Below, piece by piece: positions 11,621 to 59,531 of a stretch of DNA of 64,000 nucleotides. The notes beneath the pieces were generated by a model. That model made no database searches. It worked only from the letters and a program-made list of their open reading frames with translations, and had not been told where the DNA came from. The stretch is from assembly GCA_964016885.1 (NCBI GenBank), contig OZ024758.1, forward strand, positions 31,992,001-32,056,000, in the 5' to 3' direction. Source of the DNA: Eledone cirrhosa. Its lineage: Eukaryota. How positions within the stretch are numbered: position 1 is the first letter of the stretch; each line of letters starts with the position of its first letter. Both the position numbers and the translations under genes were made by a program.

Positions 11621-12156
11621 AAAACAAAAAAAAATTAAATAACGCATATTTCCGGTCGGCGGAAAGATTTTCCGGCATGAAGTCAGTCCGTGGTATAAAA
11701 AAGGTTGGAGACGACTGTTCCAAAGTATAAACAATATTTTTCTTTTTATAGCAACACGTTTATATTACACGTTGTTATTGTTATCCGAAAGTACTGCTGT
11801 ACTTCCGTATAACAGGCTACTTCCATTAAGTGGGCTGTAACTCCACAGCGCACTCACTTTTACTCTCTCTTCTAATTTCTCCACACCTTTACACATTCAA
11901 TCTGTCTATCTCTGAAAAAGTTTATACGATATATAAGTTCAGTTAGATCTCAGCATATTTACATGCCACGTATGTTACTTTTCTTTTCTGTTAATAATAT
12001 TCTATATGGATTCGTTGCATTCTACCCCCACCTAAAAATGGCATTCTTGTTTTCCTCGCTGGTCACTATTGATTTCGATACCAATACTCTGGGGTCGAGA
12101 TGGGGTGGAAATCGCCACCTCCTCCCTGGACATCACATAAATACAACACATCAACT

Positions 12157-14771
12157 TATAGCGAAGATACTGGGTTGTATGAATGTAACAAGGAGACATC
12201 GTTTGTGTGTATAATATTTAATCAACAATTTAACAGTATAGTTGACATGTCAATGAATAAACGAAAGAATGAAGCAAAGTTAGTAGTTACCGTTTTGATT
12301 GCCAGGCAAACGCGGCTGGCAGAAGACGCCTGGCGAAGGCCAGGCGCCGGTAGGGCAAATGAGAGGGAGAGAGCCGAAAACTATTCGTTTTATAGGGCTC
12401 TGCCGGAAGTTACAGAAAGGGTTCTACTTCCCGTCTAGATGTTAATCTATTGGGGTTGTGAGTCACAACAAGGGAGGCTACTGCTACATAACCTCCCGCC
12501 AGAATTTTAGAATATAAAAATCGAATGAAATATGTAGCAAGTTGGCGAGAATGTTGTAACAGGCATGAAAATTACGATAAAAGAATGTTTGCAAAAATCA
12601 ATGATAGATATCAAGGTAGCCAACCGCTCTTGGCCAGAAAACGACTGGACATCTATCCATCACCCAAAGATACAATGTAATAAAGTAAGAGAAGAGCTCA
12701 AAGTTCAAATGTACAAAATATAGTTCACAGGTGTGCAATCACATGACAGCAGGAAAGAAAGTGTGTTCCAGAGAATGAATGCAGGTGGTTTCTGTTCTGT
12801 GGTATATCGTGAAATTTCCAACCTCCGAATGGATTTTCTCACAGGAAGAGTGCTGCAAAAATAAATTCTCTGGCTTGTTCTGCTGGTTTTGGTTGTTGGT
12901 GAAGCTGTGTTGCTGTTGATGTTGTTGTCTCGCTGAGTGAGCGTATTCGGTGTTTAAATTCACAGTAAAAAAAAAAATTTTTTTTGAAAAAATGAGTTGC
13001 GCAAAAGTGCTAGAAATAACAGCCGAAGTTGATGGTCGATGTTGAGAATGCGTTGACCTGGAAGGGTCAAGAGGCCAGCGACCAAAGAAATAAGCATTCT
13101 GAATAAATGCGCAGTTTTCAACGGCAAATTTACGTGGTAAATTTTTAAACCGGCAAATAGGAGAATATAGCTTAAGGCTGAAGAATCCTTGGCGAGAAAC
13201 GTTATCTCTGGCGTGCGGCTATCTCTGTGAGTCGAGAATTTGTGCTGCCTACACGTGCCAATGCAAGGTTAAGTTAGGTTGAAAAAATAATATTTCTAAC
13301 GCGCGAGAAAATGATAGTGCAAGTGTGAAAGTGACAATGATGAAAAAGAAAGGCTTCACTTAGCATAATTATTGGTGTGAACTTTGGAAAAAAAAACTTG
13401 AACGATGAAGAAAACGATGAAAAAAAAGGCAATGGTTCATCGAAAATAAATGTTCCTGTTGAAATGTTTTTTAAAGAATATCAAATTTCTTTCTTTTTTT
13501 TTGTTTTGTTTTGAAAGTGTTCGTTGTAAGAAACGAGAAACATATATATATATCGTGAAATGCGACAGTTAGTTGATGCGCGAGAGAAAAAGTCTGTCTG
13601 TGCGAAAATTTCACATGTGCGTGGTGTGTTCGTTTCTTTTACTGAGTATTTTCATAGTTTGTCAATAAATTTGCTGTGTATTCGTAATGTTACTCACACA
13701 ACACCAGATTCTGCTATTTTTTTATTTTTTCGGGGTGACCACTTATAGCGATGAACGGCTGCGTGTTCGTATCACGTCAGGGTTACCAATATAGCGAAGA
13801 TACTGGGTTGTATGAATGTAACAAGGAGACATCGTTTGTGTGTATAATATTTAATCAACAATTTAACAGTATAGTTGACATGTCAATGAATAAACGAAAG
13901 AATGAAGCAAAGTTAGTAGTTACCATTTTGATTGCCAGGCAAACGCGGCTGGCAGAAGACGCCTGGCGAAGGCCAGGCGCCGGTAGGGCAAATGAGAGGG
14001 AGAGAGCCGAAAGCTATTCGTTTTATAGGGCTCTGCCGGAAGTTACAGAAAGGGTTCTACTTCCCGTCTAGATGTTAATCTATTGGGGTTGTGAGTCACA
14101 ACAAGGGAGGCTACTGCTACATAACCCCCCGCCAGAATTTTAGAATATAAAAATCGAATGAAATATGTAGCAAGTTGGCGAGAATGTTGTAACAGGCATG
14201 AAAATTACGACAAAAGAATGTTTGCAAAAATCAATGATAGATATCAAGGTAGCCAACCGCTCTTGGCCAGAGAACGACTGGACATCTATCCATCACCCAA
14301 AGATACAATGTAATAAAGTAAGAGAAGAGCTCAAAGTTCAAATGTACAAAATATAGTTCACAGGTGTGCAATCACATGACAGCAGGAAAGAAAGTGTGTT
14401 CCAGAGAATGAATGCAGGTGGTTTCTGTTCTGTGGTATATCGTGAAATTTCCAACCTCCGAATGGATTTTCTCACAGGAAGAGTGCTGCAAAAATAAATT
14501 CTCTGGCTTGTTCTGCTGGTTTTGGTTGTTGGTGAAGCTGTGTTGCTGTTGATGTTGTTGTCTCGCGGAGTGAGCGTATTCGGTGTAAAAAAAAAAATAT
14601 ACATTATTAAGAAATAATAAGGCCAGGCGCCGGTAGGGCAAATGAGAGGGAGAGAGCCGAAAGCTATTCGTTTTATAGGGCTCTGCCGGAAGTTACAGAA
14701 AGGGTTCTACTTCCCGTCTAGATGTTAATCTATTGGGGTTGTGAGTCACAACAAGGGAGGCTACTGCTACA
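12157..14771 (-). mobile_element. Tandem non-autonomous Gypsy-derived LTR element (LTR-internal-LTR-partial internal-partial LTR)
   Basis: Two near-identical 332-bp LTRs (12157-12488, 13790-14121) plus a partial LTR (14621-14771), starting TGTAGCAG on the minus strand. PPT-like CTGGCGGG(A/G)GG precedes the LTRs, PBS TGGTCACCCCGA lies at 13730-13741, and the TSD AACT is at 12153-12156 and 14772-14775. No pol ORF. Confidence 0.88.
13757..13788 (+). pseudogene. cDNA copy of the 3' end of mature tRNA-Trp including CCA
   Basis: GGCTGCGTGTTCGTATCACGTCAGGGTTACCA versus the recalled metazoan tRNA-Trp end GGCTGCGTGTTCGAATCACGTCGGGGTCACCA: 29/32 identical. Confidence 0.85.
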
Positions 14772-14899
14772 AACTCAACAAACATTTTCTACTAAAATTT
14801 CTTCTTCACATTATCACAATGAAAGTGTTTACAATCTCGATCAGAAATAACAATAGTTTATTGTTCCCTCCCGGTTTATTTCTTCATAACTTTCTCTAC

Positions 14900-28842: not shown

Positions 28843-31800
28843 TACTTACTTGTACTTGTACTTGTGTCGACATTCACTCTGGACAGGTTGAGCCGGCTTC
28901 TTCCCTTGTCCTGACGGCATCCCGAACCATGGCAGCCCACGCACGACGGGCTAGGTCACTGGAGATAGCGAGCCAGTCACGGTTCCATCGTCGCAGGCCG
29001 ACCACCTGCAGACCTGAGAGTTCGGAGAGGTCCTCCTTGATCGTCGTTGCCCAGGTCTTCAGCTGCCCACCAACGCGCTAACGCCAGTTAGAGAGGAGAA
29101 CATTGAGGATCAGCTCACCCTCAGGGCGCCGGGCTGCGTGACCAAACCATCTCAAGTGCCGTTGCAGAAGCACCGTAGGAAGGGGTCGAAGATTCAGGCG
29201 AAGACGAAGACTGGTGGTAGGTACCCGATCAACGCACCGGCAGCGAAGAATGCAGCGGAGATAGTCATTGTCGAAGACCTCCAGCCCTCGTTGATCGACT
29301 ACCCTCATAGGCCATGTTTCACAGCCATAGAGGAGGATAGTGCGAACGACGGCCTGGTAGAATCACCCTTTGGTCGCCGAGGTGATCTCTCTTCTGTCCC
29401 ACAGACACCGCTGGAGGCGCCCAAAAGCGGATCTGGCAGCACCTATGCGACGCTTGACCTCGGCTGCGCCCTGTCCCGTTGGAACCACTGTTGAGCCCAG
29501 GTAAACGAAGGACTCCACATCCTCCAGGTACACACCCTCGAGAGATATCGGCTGCCAGGCATTAGGCGAGACCAGTGACGTCATGACTTTCGACTTGACG
29601 GCATTGATTCGTAGACCAACAGCGGTGGCTGCAGTGTGCACCCCTTCGAGAGCACCCTGTACATCTGTACCGTTAGCGCCCATCAGCACGATGTCATCCG
29701 TGTAGGCCAGGTCCGTCACCACAACCCCTCTTCCGACCTCTACGCCCGGGTAATCCCGGAGCGCTGTGTTGAGAGTGTAGTCAATGGCGTAGTTAAAGAA
29801 CACCGAACACCGGTCCCAACATCGAACGACTCCGTCTCCCCACCATAGACCCTCACTTGAGCCCGAGTCGACCGGTAGTAGCCTTGTATGAGACGAAGCA
29901 GCTTCATTGGGATGCCGTCCGCCTGCATTATACGCCATAGGGCTTCCCGATCTACCGTGTCGAAGGCAGCTGCAAAGTCGATGAAGCAGAGGACGGTAGG
30001 CTGTTGATGTGCCCACCGTTGTTCCAGGACACGCCGGAGAATGAAGATTTGATCAACGCACCCCCTCCCCGGGAGGAGCCGCCCTGAGAAGGGCGGGTAC
30101 GGACATCACGGATGGTCTGGAACCTCTTCAGCAGAAGAATTGCGAAGGTTTTGGCAGTAACGTCAATTAAACTGATACCCCTGTAGTTGGAACAGTTTCC
30201 TGTCGCCTTTTTAAAGAAGGGTAGGAGAGTTGCCTCGCTCCAGTCACCAGGGAACCGCTCCGTCGCCCACACCGAGGAGAAGACTCGATGGAGCCAAGCT
30301 GCGAAGACATCAGGCATGGCCTTGTAGACCTCAGCTGGAACGCCAACTTTGCCCGGAGCCTTGCTGTTCCGGAGATGTGTCAGGACACCACGTACCTCCT
30401 CCACCGTTGGAGGGGCAGTGCTGCACCCGTATTCTTCTCCGGAAGGCTGCACGTAGGTTGGTGTGGGTGGTGGCGGGTGGTTGAGCAGCTCGGAGAAATG
30501 GCCCCGCCATCGGACTAACCGGTCATTAAGATTGGTAATGACCGACCCGTTCCGATCACAGATCGTCTCGCTGACACCCGTACTGCTTCGGCTGGTCCGC
30601 TTCACCAGTTGGTAGAGCCTGCGCGAGTCACCACAGGCGCTGCTGCCCTCTCCGTCTGCTCCGCAAATTCGCGCCATTGTGCATTCCTTCCGATCGGCCC
30701 GAATAGCCCGAGATGTGCGACGTCGGAGATCTCGAAGATTGGGTGCACCCTCGAGTCGGGCCACTCTCGCCCTCTCCGCGAGTTCAAGAGTGCCGCCGGA
30801 GATCCAGTCCCGATGGCGTCTTCGGGTCGACTCGAGATGCTCTCCGGCCATAACAACCGTTGGCGCCCTGAGCGTGCTCCACTCCTGCTCCGGTTGCTGT
30901 TCCACTTCGTTACTCAGCATTTGGAATCGGTTTCGCAGCTCTAGCCGGAAAGCATTTCCAGCATCGAGCTTGAGTCGCGAGATGTCGATCCTCTTCTGGC
31001 GGTTGGGAGGACCTTTCACCTGCAGCCGCAGACGAAGGGTTGCTCGAACAAGAGTATGGTTTAACCCATGCTCACTGCATGTATCAGCCCCCCTCCCTCC
31101 GATACGCACGCGAGTCCATCACTGAGCTGGCCCACCGAGATCTGACCAGGATGTAGTCAATCTGATTGGCCGTTCTTCCGTCATTGGATCGCCACGTGAC
31201 GAGGTGACGCCGAGGATGTTGGAACCGGGTGTTAGTGACGATAAGACGATTGGCATCCGTGAAGGACACGAGCCGTTCACCATTGTCACAGCGTACGCCT
31301 AGGGTGAAGCGTCCTAGAATATGCCGTGTTGTATCATCAGCCGGCCCCGTCCGCGCATTCCAGTCCTCAGCGACAATGAGAACATCACTGGAGGGGACGC
31401 CATCCACGGTTGTGTGGATATCGGCATAGAACTGCGTCTTTTCCGCCTCGTCCGCATTCAGTGTGGGAGCGTAGACGGCAATTACGCTGACGTTGGAGAT
31501 TTGACCCTTCAATCGAACCAGCGCGAGTCGGTGTGAGATCGGCTGCTACGCCAGCAGAGCCGCTTACGTGTCGGGGCCGAGCGCTACACCGACCCCGTGA
31601 AGGCCACTGTTGTCAGTCACGCCACTATGGTACAAGTGGTAGGAGATGTCCTCGCCAGGAACATTGATCGGAAGATGACCAACATCGGGAAGTCGAACTT
31701 CTGAAAGGCAAGCGACACTAACGCAGTAGTTCGGACGTTCCAGCACGCCACCCTCAATTCCTTCCTTCGTCTGAAGAGCGGGACTACTGCGGGAGCAGTC

Positions 31801-41183: not shown

Positions 41184-44100
41184 GGAGACAGTGGCAGAGA
41201 GAGAGATGCTTGCCTGAATGCAAATAGCGCAGCCCTTGAAAGAGCAAAGCGAGCTGAGACGGCCGCAGAGAGAGATATTTGCCTTACTGCCGAAAGAGAG
41301 TCACACCAATGCACGAAAGAAGGTGAACACGCACTCTCCAGAACTCTAAGACAGAGATTTGATAGACCTGCACGAACAGCAGCCAGTGCTGCTAGGAACA
41401 TTGTCTGGTTCAAGGCTGCCTTCAGCTACGATCTCACTAGGGATTATGACAGCAACCCTAAGGTCTCCATTGGCAGAATGGATAATGTCTGCGCATACTG
41501 TAGGGCCATTAAGTGGCCAGGCAAGGCTCCAACTATGTGCTGCACTGGAGGAAAGGTGAGACTCGAGACAATGCAAGTTCCTCCAGATGTACTGAGGCAG
41601 CTGCTTACAGATGACACTCCAAAGGCCAAGCACTTTCGTGGTAAAATCTGGAAGTACAATACATCATTTATGATGACATCCTTCGGTGCAGACAAAGACT
41701 TGACGAACCGAGGTTTCTCCACCACGTATAATATCCAGGGCCAGTACTATCACCACTTGGGTAGCCTGCGACCAGTTTTAGATGAAGGGCCCAAGTATGT
41801 GCAAGTGTACTTTATGGGTGGTGGCAATGAGGAAGTTAATCAGCGCTGCAGGCTCACTCAAGGTGTTGACAGACAGATAATAGTAGAGCTCCAGAGTATG
41901 CTACACACAACTCACCCTTATGTCCACAGCTTCAAGTGTGCTTTGGAATGAATGGAGTAGATGTCTGCTCTCAAAGTGATCATCAAGGCTGACAGGCGGC
42001 CAGTTGGCAAGCATGCTTGGCGGTTCAATGCTCCTGCAACAAATGAGGTTGCAATCATTCTGTTTGGAGAAGAGCATGGCAAGCGTGACATTGTCTTGAA
42101 TCACCGCGACAACTGCTTATCATCCACCAAGGAGACACACAGGTCATATGATTGTTTAATTTTGAGCTGCGCCAAGTAAACCCGGTAAATGGACAGGAGA
42201 CCAACAACACTATTTTTTGCAAAGATTCCTATATCTACCGTCTAATGGTCTGAGATGGGGAATTCAATCAGCTTCTGCGGTTCAAGGAGGTGACAAGCCA
42301 GCTTATGGTGGATATGTACGCAAAGATAGAAACTGAGCATTTGTTATACGTTCGCATAAACCAGAATAAATTGAGATTAGAACAATATATCCACTTGCAG
42401 GATGCACTGAATTGCGATGGCATTGCTCAAAACGAGGGCCAGCAGGTCATCCTACCATCTAGTTTTACTGGCTCGCCCTGCTACATGCATCAACATAACA
42501 TGCCATGGCCTATGTGCGCAAGTTTGGCTGACCCGATCTGTTTATAATGTTTACCTGCAACCAAAAGTGGAAGGAAATTCAGGCCTACCTCTTTGAAGGT
42601 TAAAGGAGCGCTGACAGGCATGATCTTATCGCAAGGGTTTTCCACCAGAAACAGAAAAAACGTTTGTGGCTGCTAAAAGATGGAAGAATATTTGGTGATC
42701 TTAATGCATGGATGTACACTATAGAGTGGCAAAAACGGAGCCTCCCTCACTCTTTGGTGCAAGGAGAGGATCAGACCACAGAATATTGATTAGATCATTT
42801 GTGCAGAATTGCCCAACCCAGAGCAAGAGATGGAACTGTACACCACCACCAAGACATGGAACTGTACACTACCATCAAGACACAAATGGTACACGGACCC
42901 TGTGGCAACCTCAACCTAGGTCCTCGTGCATGGAAAGCAACAAGTGCACTAAAAGGTTCCCCAGGGAATTTATCCAGGAAACACGTACTGGACACGATGG
43001 TTATCCACTGTACAGGTGCAGCATACCAGAAGACGGTGGATTCAAGGCTAAGTTCAGAGTTAATAGCCAAGAGATGGAGACAACATTTGGATCGTGCCCT
43101 ACATCCCATTGCTGTCTAAAACATTCAACACCCATGTCAATGTTGAGTCATACAACTCGATAAAGATTATCAAATATGTATGCAAATACATCAATAAGGG
43201 TTCTGACATGGCAGTATTTGGTGTTGAACAGGCAGATGAAATCAAGCAATATCAGTTGGGCATATTTCATCCAATGAAGCTATGTGCTGCATCCTTGGCT
43301 GTGAAATCCATGAGCGGCATCCAACAGTGGTGAATCTGTCTGTTCATCTGGAAAATGGCCAGCATGTGTACTTTAGATAAGAAACAGCCCGCAACGTTAT
43401 TGAGCAGCCACCAGAAACCACTCTGACGGCTTTCTTCAAGTTATGCCAGGCTCACCTGTTTGCTAGAACACTTCTGTATATTGAGGTTCCTGTCACAAAA
43501 AATGGTCACAAAAAATGGAGCACGTGCAAACAAGGAGCACTAGTTGAGGGCTGGGAAACGGTCTTCAAAAGCAAGGCCATCGGGTGAGTGTACACTGTGT
43601 ACCCCAATCAGCAGGAGTGCTTCTTTCTGTGTCTGCTGTTGCACACTGTCAGAGGTCCTACATCATTGACAGACTTGCGAAGGTTCATTGGAGAGATCTG
43701 TTCGACCTACAGGGAAGCCTGAGCCAAACATGGACTTCTGTGACCAGACATTGGAGGAGGCTGCAGTCCCCAGAGTCTCAAGACAGCTACGTCAGTTATT
43801 TTCCATCATGCTGATGACATGTAGCTTGGGCGAGCCTCTTAAACATTGGGAGACCTCCAAAGAAAGCATGGCAGACTTACTTCGCGGGATTCAGAGAGAG
43901 CACCCCTCGGTAAATATGGAAATTAATTATGGGATTTTCAATGCGGCATCGACATCGACATCGACACCTGAGTGCAAACTATGGGGGATTAAAGAATTGT
44001 CACTTTTGGTCTGCCTCAACCAGAACAGGCAAACAATACTCTAGCAGTTGAGTACATACACGACATCAACTATTATGCCGAAGAAATCGCAGCGTACGCA

Positions 44101-45454
44101 GTTGATAAGGAGCACCGACTGACAGAGGATCAAAGGTATGTTTACAACTCAAACATTTCCAGCATTGAGGGTGAAAAGGGAGGCATAATTTTCCTGGACG
44201 CCCCAGGTGGGACTGGTAAAACATTCATCAACCTTTTGCTGGCGAAACTACAGCATACGAAACAGGTTGCTCTGGCAGTGGCCTCAAGTGGAATAGCTGC
44301 TACCCTGCTAAGTGGTGGCCGCACAGCCCATTCGTCTTTCAAACTCCCTTTGGACCTGTCCAAGAAAGAGAAGGCAACTTGCAACATCAGTCGTGGCTCC
44401 ATAAGAGGCAAACTCCTCAGTGAGTGCAAGTTGATCATCTGGGATGAGGCAACTATAAGTTATAAGGGGACCTTTGAGGCTCTTGACAGGGTATTGCAGG
44501 ATCTGAGGAACAACATGCGGCTCATGGGAGGTGGAACAGTCCTGCTTGCTGGAATCTTCAGAAAAACACTTGCGGTGCTTCCAAAGGGAAAAGGAGCTGA
44601 CAAGGTAAATGCTTCCTACATGTGGAGCAGTGTGACTAAGTTAATACTCCAAATGAACATGAGAGTGCAGCTTAGTGGTGATGAAGCTGGAACTTTATCC
44701 AGGCAGCTGATGGACGTAGGAAATGGCAGTCTGGTTGTTGGACAAAATGGTCAGGTCAGTTTACCTTTTGGGAACATGATTTCCGATATGCATGACTTAT
44801 TGTCTAAAGTGTATCCAAACCTGGGGATTCAGTTCGAAGACCTCACCTGGCTGAGAAAACGTGCCCTCTTAGCGCCCAAAAATGCTGCAGTGGATGACTT
44901 GAACATCAGACTCCTAGAGCAGCTGCTAGGTGAGCGTCGCAGCTACAAGTCATTTGACTCTGTACTTAACCCGGACGAAGTTACCCCATCGAATTTTTGA
45001 CCAGCTGACACCAGCAGGCTTCCCACCTCACAACTTGCACCTCAAAATTGGTGCAGCAATTATGCTTTTAAGGAACCTGGACCCACCCAAACTCTGCAAT
45101 GGGACACGACTTACGATCAAGAAGATGATACCAAGAGTCCTAGAGGCGACCATTTTGACTGGCAAAGCAAGTGGTGAAGTTGTCTTCATACCGTGTATTC
45201 CTCTGGTCCCATCTGATGTGCCATTTGAGTTCAAGTGCCTACAATTTCCAGTGAAACTGAGCTTTGCAATGACTATAAACAAGGCACAGGGTCAGTCCTT
45301 GGAGATGGTTGGCCTAAACCTGGCCGAACCTGTCTTTTCCCACGGCCAGCTGTATGTAGGTTGTTCAAGAGTCAGTAATCCAAATAATTTGTTCATTTAT
45401 GCTCCACAGGGCAAGACCAATAATGTTGTTTACCAAGAGGCTCTGCAAAACTGA
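41184..45454 (+). pseudogene. Helitron Rep/PIF1-helicase pseudogene
   Basis: CAYCRAIKW..CCTGGKV zinc motif, YTIEWQKRSLPH, KYVCKYINKG (Rep), DAPGGTGKTF, GRTAHS, IIWDEA, FAMTINKAQGQSL, HGQLYVGCSRV. Many stops and frameshifts. Confidence 0.95.
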
Positions 45455-48456: not shown

Positions 48457-49542
48457 AAGGGTCAAGAGGCCAGCGACCAAAGAAATAAGCATTCTGAATA
48501 AATGCGCAGTTTTCAACGGCAAATTTACGTGGTAAATTTTTAAACCGGCAAATAGGAGAATATAGCTTAAAGCTGGAGAATCCTTGGCGAGAAACGTTAT
48601 CTCTGGCGTGTGGTTATCTCCGTGAGTGGAGAATTCTGCTGCCTACACGTGCCAAAACAAGGTTAAGTTTTAAAAAAAAATGTTCTATTGCGCGAGAAAA
48701 TGGCGCGAAAATGATAGTGCAACAGGTCGTTGGCAGCCATTTTGAAAAAATGTGTGTGTGAAAGTGACAATGATGAAAAAGAAAGAAAGGCTTCACTTAG
48801 TATAACAAATATGGCGAGTTCAATTTTTTTTTTTTGTGAACGATGAAAAAAACTTGAACGATGAAGAAAACGATGAAAAAAAGCAATAGCTGAGATTCAT
48901 CGAAAATAAATGTTCATGTTGAAATGTTTAAAAAAAAAAATCAAATTTCTTTTTTTTTGTTTGTTTTTAAAGTGTTCGTTGTAAGAAGAAACGAAAAACA
49001 TATATATATATATACAGTGAAATGCGACAGTTAGTTGATGCGTGAGAGAAAAAGAGTCTGTCTGAACGAGAATTTCACATGTGCGTGTGTTCGTTTCTGT
49101 GTCTGCGTATTTTCATAGTTTGTCAATAAAATTTGCTGCGTATTCGTAATGTTACTCACACAACACCAGATTCTGTTATTTTTTTTCTTTTTTCGGGGTC
49201 ACCACTTATAACAAAATACTGGGTTGTATAAGTATAACAAGAGACGTGGTTTGTGTGTATAATATTTAATTAACAATTTGTGGATATATAGAACAGTATA
49301 GTTGACATGTCAATGAATAGATGAGAGAATGAAGCAAAGTTATTAGTTACCGTTTGGTTGCCAGGTAAACACGCCTGGCCGAAGGCCAGGAGCCGAAAAG
49401 GCAAATGAGAGATAGGGAGCTTAAAGTTATTCCCTTTATAGGGTTGGAACGGAAGTTACAGAAAGGGTTCTACTTCCTATCTAGAGAGCGTTAATCTATT
49501 GGTAATGTGATTGTCACAACAAGGGAAGCAACTCCTGCTACA
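48457..49542 (-). mobile_element. Second, diverged copy of the non-autonomous LTR element (LTR 49207-49542, PBS, part of internal region)
   Basis: Colinear with 13060-14121. PBS TGGTGACCCCGA at 49193-49204 is complementary to the tRNA-Trp 3' end. Confidence 0.88.
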
Positions 49543-57040: not shown

Positions 57041-59531
57041 AGAGGAACAGTGGAAATTCCTGAAAGCAAACCTGCTGATGGCGGCAGACAAAGTCTGTGG
57101 CCGGAGCAGGCCTATAGGCAGGAGGAGAGTAACATGGTGGTGGAACAGTAAGGTGGAGGAGTCGATTAAGGCCAAAAAGCAGGCTTAGAAAGTATGGCGG
57201 GATGGGGGAAGTAGAGAAGACTATCAAGTGGCCAGGAGGGAAGCTAGGAGACAAGTGTACTTCGCAAGAAGGGAAGCAGAGGAAAGAAAGTTCAAGCATG
57301 TTCTACAATGCGAGGACCAAAAACGTGAGGTGTTCAGGATTGCTAGGCAATGTATCAAGGAAAACCGTGATATTGTCGGGGAGAAGTGTGTACTAAATGA
57401 TGATGGCGTACTTGCCATCACTGACGCTGATAAGAAGGTAGCTTGGAAGTGTCACTACGAGAGGCTACTAAATGAGGAGAATAAATGGGAGAAGGATAGT
57501 CTCCCCCAGATCGATCCAATCAGTGTTAGTTGAAGGTAGTATAATAAGTAAGGCAATCAAAGATATGAAGACGGGTAAGGCGGCTGGGCCTTCGGAAATA
57601 GTTGCTGAGATGCTGAAAGCCTCTGGAACGGTGGGACACACCATGGTCACCCGGATAGTAAACCAAGTCATACAGAATGGGGTTGTTCCGAAGGACTGGC
57701 GTAGCAGCATCATCATAACTGTTACAAGGGTAAAGGAGAAGAGGCATTAAATTAATCGACCAGGTCATGAAGGTCACGCGAAAAGTAATAGTGCAACTAA
57801 TCAGAGAGAGAATTGATCTAGATGAAATGCAGTTCGGGTTTGTGTCAGGCAAAAGTACCACAGACGCTCTTTTCATTGTACGACAACTACAGGAGAAGTA
57901 CCCAGCTAAAAGTAAACCCCTATACTTAGCTTTTGTCGACTTGGAAAAAGCCTTCGACAGAGTCCCCCGTTCCATTATCTGGTGGGCTCTTAGAAAACTA
58001 GGTGTTTCTTTATACAAGCCATGTATAAAGAAACAGTCAGCAAGGTTAGAATTAACAACGAATATAGTGAAGAGTTTAGCGTAAAAGTTGGTGTTCATCA
58101 GGGCTCTGTTCTTAGCCCCCTACTATTTATTATTGCCCTACAGGCTATAACAGTGGAGTTCAAGACCGGCTGCCCATGGGAACTCCTATACGCAGATGAT
58201 CTAACGCTCATAGCTGAATCAATGGCCTAGCTAGAGAAGAAATTCCAAACATGGAAGCACGGCCTAGAATCAAAAGGCCTTAAAATTAACCTGGCTAAGA
58301 CTAAAGTTTTAGTTTGTAGGAAAGAAAATAAGGCGCCGGTCCCGTCCGGGAAATGGCCATGCTCAGTGTGTAGGAAAGGCGTAGGTAGAAACTCCATTTT
58401 ATGTTCCAAATACAAAGTATGGGTGCATAAAAGATGTAGTGGGATCACAGGTAAGCTAACTAAGAACATAGATTTTACATGTGGGCGGTGCTCTGGTGCA
58501 ATAAGTAGCAGCAAGTGCCCACAAAATACTAGCTCTTTCAATTGCGCAGAGGGTTCTATAGAAATAGTGGACAGCTTCCGTTACCTGGGTGACAAAATCA
58601 GCAGTGGGGGAGGGTGCTCTGAAAGTACAGTAGCTAGAGTCAGAACTGGATGGAAAAAGTTCAGAGAGCTTATACCACTATCAGCCGCTAAAGGGTTCTC
58701 CCTAAAAATGAAAGGCAGGCTGTATGATGCCTGCATACGAACAGCAATGTTGCATGGCAGTGAGACCTGGGCATTGTGTGCAGAGGATATACGCAGACTA
58801 GAGAGGAACGAAGCTTGCATGCTCCGCTGGATGTGTAATAGTAATATACGTGAACGGCAAAGCATAAACGAACTAAGGGAAAACTTAGAAATAAGAGGGA
58901 TCAGATGTTGTTTAGTCGAGAGAAGGCTACGTTGGTATGGTCACGTGATGCGCATGAAAGACGACAGCTGTATAAAAAAGTGCAGGGCAATAAAGATAGA
59001 CGGTAGCCACGGAGTAGCAGACCCAGAAAAACCTGGGACGACCTGATAAATTCCGACCTCACACACTTACACCTCTCCAAGACAATGTCATTGGACCGAG
59101 ATCTTTGGCGGTACTCAGTATTAGAGAAGACCCGCCTTACCTAAATACAAAGTAAAACATACTAAAGTCAGTAGGCATCTCTAACAAAACACACACCCCG
59201 TCCCACCACATCCACAACGCCCCTTTCAATGTAAAGTTATGTTGGTGCCACAACATCCAGGCCGAAACAAATGAGATCGTGTAGGTGTCACAACAAAAAA
59301 ACACACAGTCCACGCTGTAATGTGGCCGTGTAGGCAACACGGTAAAAACCTCCCAGTCCCACACTGTAAATGTGGTTGGTGTTAGGAAGGGCATCCAGCT
59401 GTAGAAAACCCGCCAGACAGTCCTATGCGAGCAAGACAACCACTCTTGCCTCAAGTGGGAAAACTCCCGTCCAAACCCATGCAAGCGTGGAACATGGACG
59501 TTAAACGATGATGATGATGATGATGATGATG

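Follow-up and report, generated by a model that had tools for sequence, protein, structure and literature searches.

Reverse transcription past m1A58 of tRNA-Trp as the probable origin of a 32-base primer-site copy in a retrotransposon family of Eledone cirrhosa

Products of reverse transcription that has run past m1A58 of the primer tRNA are regarded as dead ends. A tandem LTR element in the stretch of Eledone cirrhosa DNA analyzed here (64,000 nucleotides, hereafter the window) raises the question of whether the product of such an event can be kept by a mobile element and passed on, as an insert resembling the 3' end of tRNA-Trp lies beside its middle LTR (Table 1). The initial annotation proposed that reverse transcriptase (RT) had overrun m1A58 of its own primer and had then jumped to another LTR end, creating the tandem. 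We consider it probable that a 32-base tRNA-Trp copy was written once by an RT that overran and misread m1A58, that it was inherited by about 500 copies, and that it likely serves as their working primer site.

Table 1. Features of the tandem element and of the insert-free sister copy, in window coordinates.
Feature	Coordinates	Strand	Basis
Left target-site duplication, 4 bp	12153..12156	.	identical to 14772-14775
3' LTR, 332 bp, ends TGT...ATA	12157..12488	-	two differences from middle LTR
Polypurine-tract-like stretch adjoining 3' LTR	12489..12502	-	sequence and position; function inferred
Internal region of left unit, without recognised coding domain	12489..13729	-	longest ORF 159 aa, no Pfam hit
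Old 12-nt primer site for tRNA-Trp (positions 65-76), position 72 mutated	13730..13741	-	G at 13737
Old 2-nt spacer, 8-nt LTR-end remnant (13744-13751) and 5-nt linker (13752-13756)	13742..13756	-	sequence
Captured copy of tRNA-Trp 45-76 with CCA	13757..13788	- (tRNA sense on +)	gene alignment
1-nt spacer between insert and middle LTR	13789		position
Middle LTR, 5' LTR of left unit	13790..14121	-	sequence
Second, deleted unit: 3' part of internal region	14122..14586	-	four differences from 12489-12953
A/T-rich filler where a deletion took out the primer site of the second unit	14587..14619	.	sequence
Partial 5' LTR of the tandem	14620..14771	-	0/152 differences from middle LTR
Right target-site duplication, 4 bp	14772..14775	.	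sequence
Insert-free sister copy: intact 12-nt primer site (49193-49204) and 2-nt spacer, LTR from 49207	49193..49206	-	

The minus strand of the window carries a non-autonomous LTR element in tandem form: two direct LTRs, a primer site, a polypurine tract and flanking 4-bp target duplications are present, and coding capacity is absent. Monomers of the family measure about 1.96 kb, and the 4-bp duplication was exact in 5/10 scored pairs, or in 7/9 once the window's tandem row was set aside and two off-by-one rows were corrected. A tRNA-Trp primer site, a 4-bp target duplication and TGT...ATA/AAA ends are features of the CsRn1 clade; the CsRn1-like elements PwRn1 and AgCR are described with such a site and duplication, TGT...ATA ends and a CHCC gag of the form CX2HX9CX3C (PMC2582038). 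The window's family shares the first three of these, and the genome also contains autonomous elements that combine a CX2HX9CX3C gag with a long tRNA-Trp site; unlike the clade as described there, the family has no recognised protein, and its primer site is doubled and 32 nt long. It is a non-autonomous family of Ty3/gypsy type with CsRn1-like ends, itself without gag or RT. It also resembles TRIM-type elements in being non-coding, with LTR-PBS-PPT-LTR order and a 4-bp duplication; TRIMs, Helenus included, are described with a 1-kb limit, that same order, a 4-bp duplication in animals and a presumed Gypsy helper (PMC10886601). Assignment to TRIMs was rejected on monomer length against the limit of about 1 kb, and assignment to Helenus on the tRNA piece, which here lies outside the LTR, at the primer site, and ends in CCA, whereas in Helenus it is a promoter inside the LTR; ARAGORN found no tRNA in the whole window.

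A helper link was sought in 16 loci, gag-pol-bearing ones among them, by blastn and tblastn, and only family copies and the tRNA part matched. Other tRNA-Trp elements of the genome do carry the CHCC gag motif and are candidate helpers of the window's family. One autonomous Ty3/gypsy family encodes a CHCC gag, PR, RT, RH and IN (L143, L156, L225, L074 and about 19 more loci) and has a fixed 32-nt tRNA-Trp site (45-76), the length of the window's insert; at L225:6560-8500, a relative that shares about 79% with the window's family and has a short primer site is found within or next to such an autonomous element. Elsewhere in the window, an ORF with a PIF1-like helicase domain (43993-45000, plus strand, E 1e-51) is perhaps a Helitron piece, two 96% identical copies with RT and PHD-finger matches (4-1253 and 58195-59440) are likely non-LTR retrotransposon ends, and a further RT fragment lies at 29363-30052.

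Aligned to the reference host tRNA-Trp(CCA) gene (L104), the insert corresponds to positions 45-76 and differs from it only at 58 (A>T, 13770), 67 (G>A, 13779) and 72 (C>T, 13784). This agrees with the initial annotation, which had recognised the last 32 nt of tRNA-Trp including CCA, a T in place of A at position 58, and two transitions. On the element strand, the same bases read as a 32-nt primer site. A 29-nt core of the insert had 689 genome matches at up to three mismatches, genes and other tails among them, compared with 0 for a reversed control; the insert is therefore not a product of chance. In two other samples of the species, the insert was covered by about 70-100 raw reads (short reads and contigs); contigs from a related organism gave no coverage of it. 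The comparison with host genes proposed in the initial annotation was made on a sample, four single genes plus portions of two gene clusters, which yielded 60 gene matches representing 59 distinct genes. None of the 60 matches was followed by a genomic CCA, and A58 was found in 57/59 genes. The two T58 genes are an intact one with A57 and a G57/T58 one with a broken anticodon loop and a further difference at 49. Thirteen places in the genome fit a pattern requiring T58, positions 45-66 intact and a base other than C at 44, namely one tRNA gene (A57, the insert having G57), 11 element CCA tails and one truncated tail. Two clusters of tRNA-Trp genes and pseudogenes were seen, G000:C4:277.41-277.44 Mb and 353.39-353.49 Mb, the second being a tandem array of mostly A57 genes.

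Joined to the family junction, by whose pattern the copies were counted, the insert has 500 matches in the genome. Internal sequence beyond the LTR was present in just 2/97 distinct copies with at least 800 nt past the insert, one of them the window's own element, and in 1/27 of the older copies. Being genome-wide in mostly monomeric copies, the insert marks a subfamily and predates the window's tandem, which likely arose later by ordinary recombination between LTRs. The proposal that a jump to another LTR end made the tandem is thus refuted, as 95 of the 97 copies are not tandem; the extended primer site is not confined to tandem junctions, and fixation of the insert in monomeric copies, named in advance as evidence against that proposal, is what the subfamily displays. 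The insert-free sister copy reported in the window was confirmed, and the insert-free form exists beyond it: the short site stood alone in 30/30 loci fetched with the sister sequence, and an intact short site next to the old LTR end had 121 matches, up to 27 of them insert-bearing. Within the window's element, the inner primer site had been called normal; the 12-nt tRNA-Trp site is indeed there, but it is mutated at position 72, a change that the initial annotation did not mention, as it did not mention the loss of the primer site in the right-hand unit. Since that unit's own primer-site region is deleted, no comparison within the element is possible.

The order of events can be followed in the older copies. 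Among 27 copies with an intact inner site, 26 share the window's junction; this old group contains 25 T58, one C58 and no A58, and one of its copies is truncated. All 25 whole tails have G67, and 23 have C72, the length of the G run being allowed for. The old group thus matches the tRNA at 67 and 72, so that its founder differed from the tRNA at 58 alone, and the two transitions are later changes of the young subfamily rather than part of the capture. A duplicated LTR end bracketing the insert had been claimed, and its remnant was found at 13744-13751; in the oldest copies, however, this remnant equals the LTR end of the insert-free family itself, so that no second element is needed. The 27th copy, L130, stems from another capture event within this family: it has a different junction, A57/A58, positions from about 51 to 76 and, again, an 8-nt remnant. 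Median LTR-pair identity is 96.5% in insert-free copies (n=25), 97.7% in old insert-bearing copies (n=13) and 99.0% in young copies (n=21; young versus old, p=0.004), many of the pairs overlapping only in part. A tree built from 102 internal regions, excluding the insert and either primer site and rooted on an insert-free copy, gave the order insert-free, L130, L151/L171, L112 and young clade, L151 and L171 being basal; it is poorly resolved, with 58/98 forks open, two rows forming a long-branch pair and 12/30 insert-free copies used.

Several copies display further rearrangements around the insert. Head-to-tail duplication of the insert unit, 46-47 nt long, is seen in L018, L108, L168, L170, L278 and L284/L285, and in L170 the tRNA bases at 67 and 72 occur only in the LTR-adjacent unit. 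At L163:3190-3700, an extra LTR is joined via a second insert (T47, C58, G67, C72), which may reflect a new read-through event in the young subfamily. In young copies such as L003, L004, L007 and L080, runs of as many as 14 G have grown in the abandoned inner site, and the outer site of old copies has 3 to 5 G.

Positions 67 and 72 also bear on which of the two sites primes. Haplotypes were counted in the first 100 of the 500 matches in genome order, with any base allowed at both positions, and comprised 79 A67/T72, nine A67/C72, 11 G67/C72 (one of them old, and two sharing one element) and one G67/T72. C72 accordingly occurs in 20 and G67 in 12 of these copies, the tRNA bases being the only alternatives seen, and G67 copies also carry C72 in 11/12 cases (p=1e-8). 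At position 58, by comparison, the same 100 matches have 97 T and three C; the variability that the initial annotation had asked about therefore exists, but it includes neither A nor G. Likewise, among 58 non-T58 tails with intact positions 54-76, the window's junction was found in six, all with C58 and none with A58. Variant copies were fetched on purpose, so that counts after the first 100 are enriched for them; among these, seven G67/C72 and 13 A67/C72 copies have the young inner-site change on one side and the young 1-nt spacer on the other. On the tree, revertants are scattered like shuffled labels (19 changes for 21 C72 copies, seven for seven G67 copies), some scatter being expected from its weak resolution. 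In raw reads of the two other samples, the minor alleles appeared at 67 in 18/89 and 15/76 and at 72 in 17/92 and 13/78 reads (about 17-20%). Insert-free copies keep the tRNA match at the 12-nt site, and young insert-bearing copies have lost it at the inner site. Since 67 and 72 revert and 58 never does, the captured piece is likely the primer site, re-copied up to m1A58; as judged from these sequences, the outer site would prime, with the 3' end of the tRNA re-copied in a minority of cycles.

The alternative that survives best, although we judge it unlikely, accepts the capture and ascribes the revertants at 67 and 72 to recombination with older copies or to surviving intermediates, making re-copying from the outer site unnecessary. 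Old G67/C72 copies do exist, the tree is weak, and Ty1 and Ty3 are reported to lack inheritance of the primer sequence; some A67/C72 copies may indeed represent intermediates from the ancestry of the subfamily, or have been copied from the host gene L086, which has A67. However, the seven G67/C72 copies keep young markers 5 nt away on one side and about 35 nt away on the other, so that recombination would require two switches within about 40 nt. These seven copies also lie in the most derived clade, and their median LTR-pair identity is 99.7% (n=7, one old copy).

That position 58 records a modification, as the initial annotation held, is supported from two directions, the old group and other tRNA-Trp tails in the genome. 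The latter were searched over positions 42-76 with CCA at up to two mismatches, the window's subfamily being excluded by pattern; removal of one tRNA gene from the 45 matches left 44 tails. Position 58 is the most substituted, at 12/44 (seven T, three C, two G), followed by 49 (five), 43 (four) and 64 (four), two of these sites being CpG. The enrichment at 58 gave a corrected binomial p of about 1e-8 and p=8e-4 against genes, values that overstate it, as the 44 tails form 37 junction groups, nine of them changed, concentrated in few LTR families. Five of the T58 tails also have A57, for which the A57/T58 host gene L116 is a possible source; the occurrence of three different bases at 58 nevertheless appears to fit misreading better than a variant gene. 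The priming tRNA is presumed here to carry m1A58. For HIV, stops at 58, 55, 54 and 37 are listed in PMC13191261.

It has to be weighed whether the read-through was real and T58 merely an ordinary founder mutation or the copy of a T58 host gene variant, with no modification recorded. T58 in the window's family rests on one founding event, 2/59 host genes have T58, and A58 is kept in 32/44 of the other tails. We nevertheless regard this account as improbable: the sole fixed change of the old group falls at the one site that is enriched elsewhere, and of the two T58 host genes the intact one has A57 and the other, with G57, is broken in the anticodon loop and different at 49. T58 is most likely a misincorporation at m1A58.

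The 5' ends of the 44 tails fall at 35-42 (37 tails, peak at 38-39) and at 27-29 (seven tails), with none at 30-34 or below 27; the gap at 30-34 has a p of about 0.001 when a geometric null is fitted to these very ends, in a search that demanded a match to 42. Tails passing position 37 are changed there in 2/7 cases. These ends would mark m1G37 and methylated G26, modifications that we presume tRNA-Trp to carry. Both are reported in many zebrafish tRNAs in passages of PMC11417395 that do not name Trp. A matching second LTR was found around at least five tails (L124, L128, L215, L216 and L232), and among the tail-bearing elements two families encode pol domains and a CHCC gag. Substitutions at 58 are grouped according to LTR family, with 6/7 tails in one group and 3/3 in another (L068, L115, L125, L140, L219 and L220; L089, L121 and L134) and 0/6 in a third (L102, L137, L145, L154, L212 and L128), possibly reflecting RT-specific misreading. 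In the second CHCC-gag family (L099, L103, L119, L149, L152 and L217), the site reaches position 37-38, and copies with one shared junction have A58 in four cases and T58 in two, which suggests re-copying past 58. Long tails also lie within inverted fold-back LTR arrangements, like integrated snap-back cDNA, in L219, L227, L228 and L154.

The autonomous CHCC-gag family with its fixed site of exactly 45-76 invites the explanation that the window's family acquired its long site when RT switched templates with an autonomous element packaged alongside it, and the young LTR ends are similar to that family's end. We consider this very improbable: A58 is present in 22/23 rows of the autonomous family (one G), T58 in none, and T47 in most, whereas the old insert group has C47 together with its own LTR end and spacer; moreover, template switching merely shifts the read-through to another element. 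Still weaker, to the point of being hardly credible, is an origin of the read-through at the window's locus, with the tandem as its result: the insert does lie at the tandem's middle LTR and the sister copy does lack it, but the genome-wide matches, the rarity of tandems and the older copies with the earlier form speak against it. Equally implausible is the DNA-level insertion of a tRNA gene fragment or tRNA-derived SINE beside the LTR, which tRNA likeness alone recommends; that class was rejected, as only positions 45-76 are present, with a CCA that the genes lack, in primer orientation and one base from the LTR, the tRNA 5' half with the internal promoter is absent, and neither ARAGORN nor Rfam (the latter on 13650-13900) found a tRNA here, the tRNA piece being too short for them.

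Our preferred reading, capture by read-through, would proceed as follows. Plus-strand strong-stop synthesis would have overrun m1A58, placed an A opposite it (T58 in the tRNA sense) and stopped near 45-42. The over-long end, unable to pair with the 12-nt site, would have been linked to the end of a minus strand on which the primer site, the spacer and 8 nt of the LTR end were still present, giving in a monomer the order LTR, tRNA copy, LTR-end remnant and old site; we infer this joining step from the structure only. The layout in the window, an LTR end, a primer site, more tRNA sequence and a junction to element DNA, is that of aberrant second-strand transfer of the HIV type. A younger subfamily then added the changes at 67 and 72, lost the match at the old site and expanded, as the copies show. 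With the outer site priming, possibly with a CsRn1-type helper, and the tRNA re-copied only as far as m1A58, 67 and 72 would revert and 58 would not. The window's tandem is an ordinary member of the subfamily with a 4-bp target duplication, its insert inherited. The claim that RT overran m1A58 of its primer and thereby created the tandem is accordingly supported for the read-through copy and not for the tandem, the insert being shared across the subfamily.

The molecular event and its genomic trace are already known from HIV: Hardy et al. 2025 (PMC12657518) describe 44 defective HIV-1 proviruses with tRNA-Lys3 read-through inserts of 7-54 nt, 5/44 of them changed at 58. In both systems, on our reading, tRNA was copied past the 18-nt site in plus-strand synthesis and left in integrated DNA. 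However, the HIV inserts reported there are somatic dead ends at deletion junctions, whereas here the product kept the whole element, entered the germline, was amplified about 500-fold and likely became the primer site. A search of mainly open-access literature found no germline, amplified and functional case of read-through. Mismatched primer sites with scattered revertants are likewise described in mouse ETn/MusD/IAP elements, where the commonest and youngest site has two tRNA mismatches and perfect sites recur across the tree, which is ascribed to copying of the primer (PMC7472051). The mouse sites in that account are 18 nt long and their changes do not lie at modified tRNA positions; here the marker at 58 shows the limit of re-copying. 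For Ty1 and Ty3, inheritance of the primer tRNA sequence is stated not to occur (PMC5371799, PMC7472051). Re-copying from the outer site conflicts with that statement, in PMC7472051 as regards Ty3, unless the lineage of the window's family differs, as this Ty3/gypsy-type family appears to inherit primer sequence.

A wider reading, which we find possible but would not expect to hold as a whole, is that read-through is a recurring, heritable way of renewing and lengthening primer sites in animal Ty3/gypsy elements, that it has left dateable traces of three modifications of tRNA-Trp (a misreading at 58 and arrests shortly before 37 and 26), patterned differently in different RT families, that primer inheritance is retrovirus-like, and that the captured site drove the expansion. 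If this were true, the family would have profited from a captured site that subsequently came to mismatch the tRNA at 67 and 72, by better priming or by escape from 3' tRNA fragments.

For the family itself, a read-through product likely founded its larger and younger part. This offers a concrete route for primer-site replacement, primer switching being called mechanistically unknown in PMC10886601. The three marked positions amount to a natural marked-tRNA experiment, in which bases 3' of m1A58 revert and base 58 does not, and they test primer inheritance in an animal Ty3/gypsy lineage by genome sequence alone. For species and times without RNA data, tRNA modifications and RT behavior could be deduced by counting these tails in many genomes. 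In Eledone cirrhosa, an error of reverse transcription likely became the working primer site of a family, in a genome with dozens of similar fossils.
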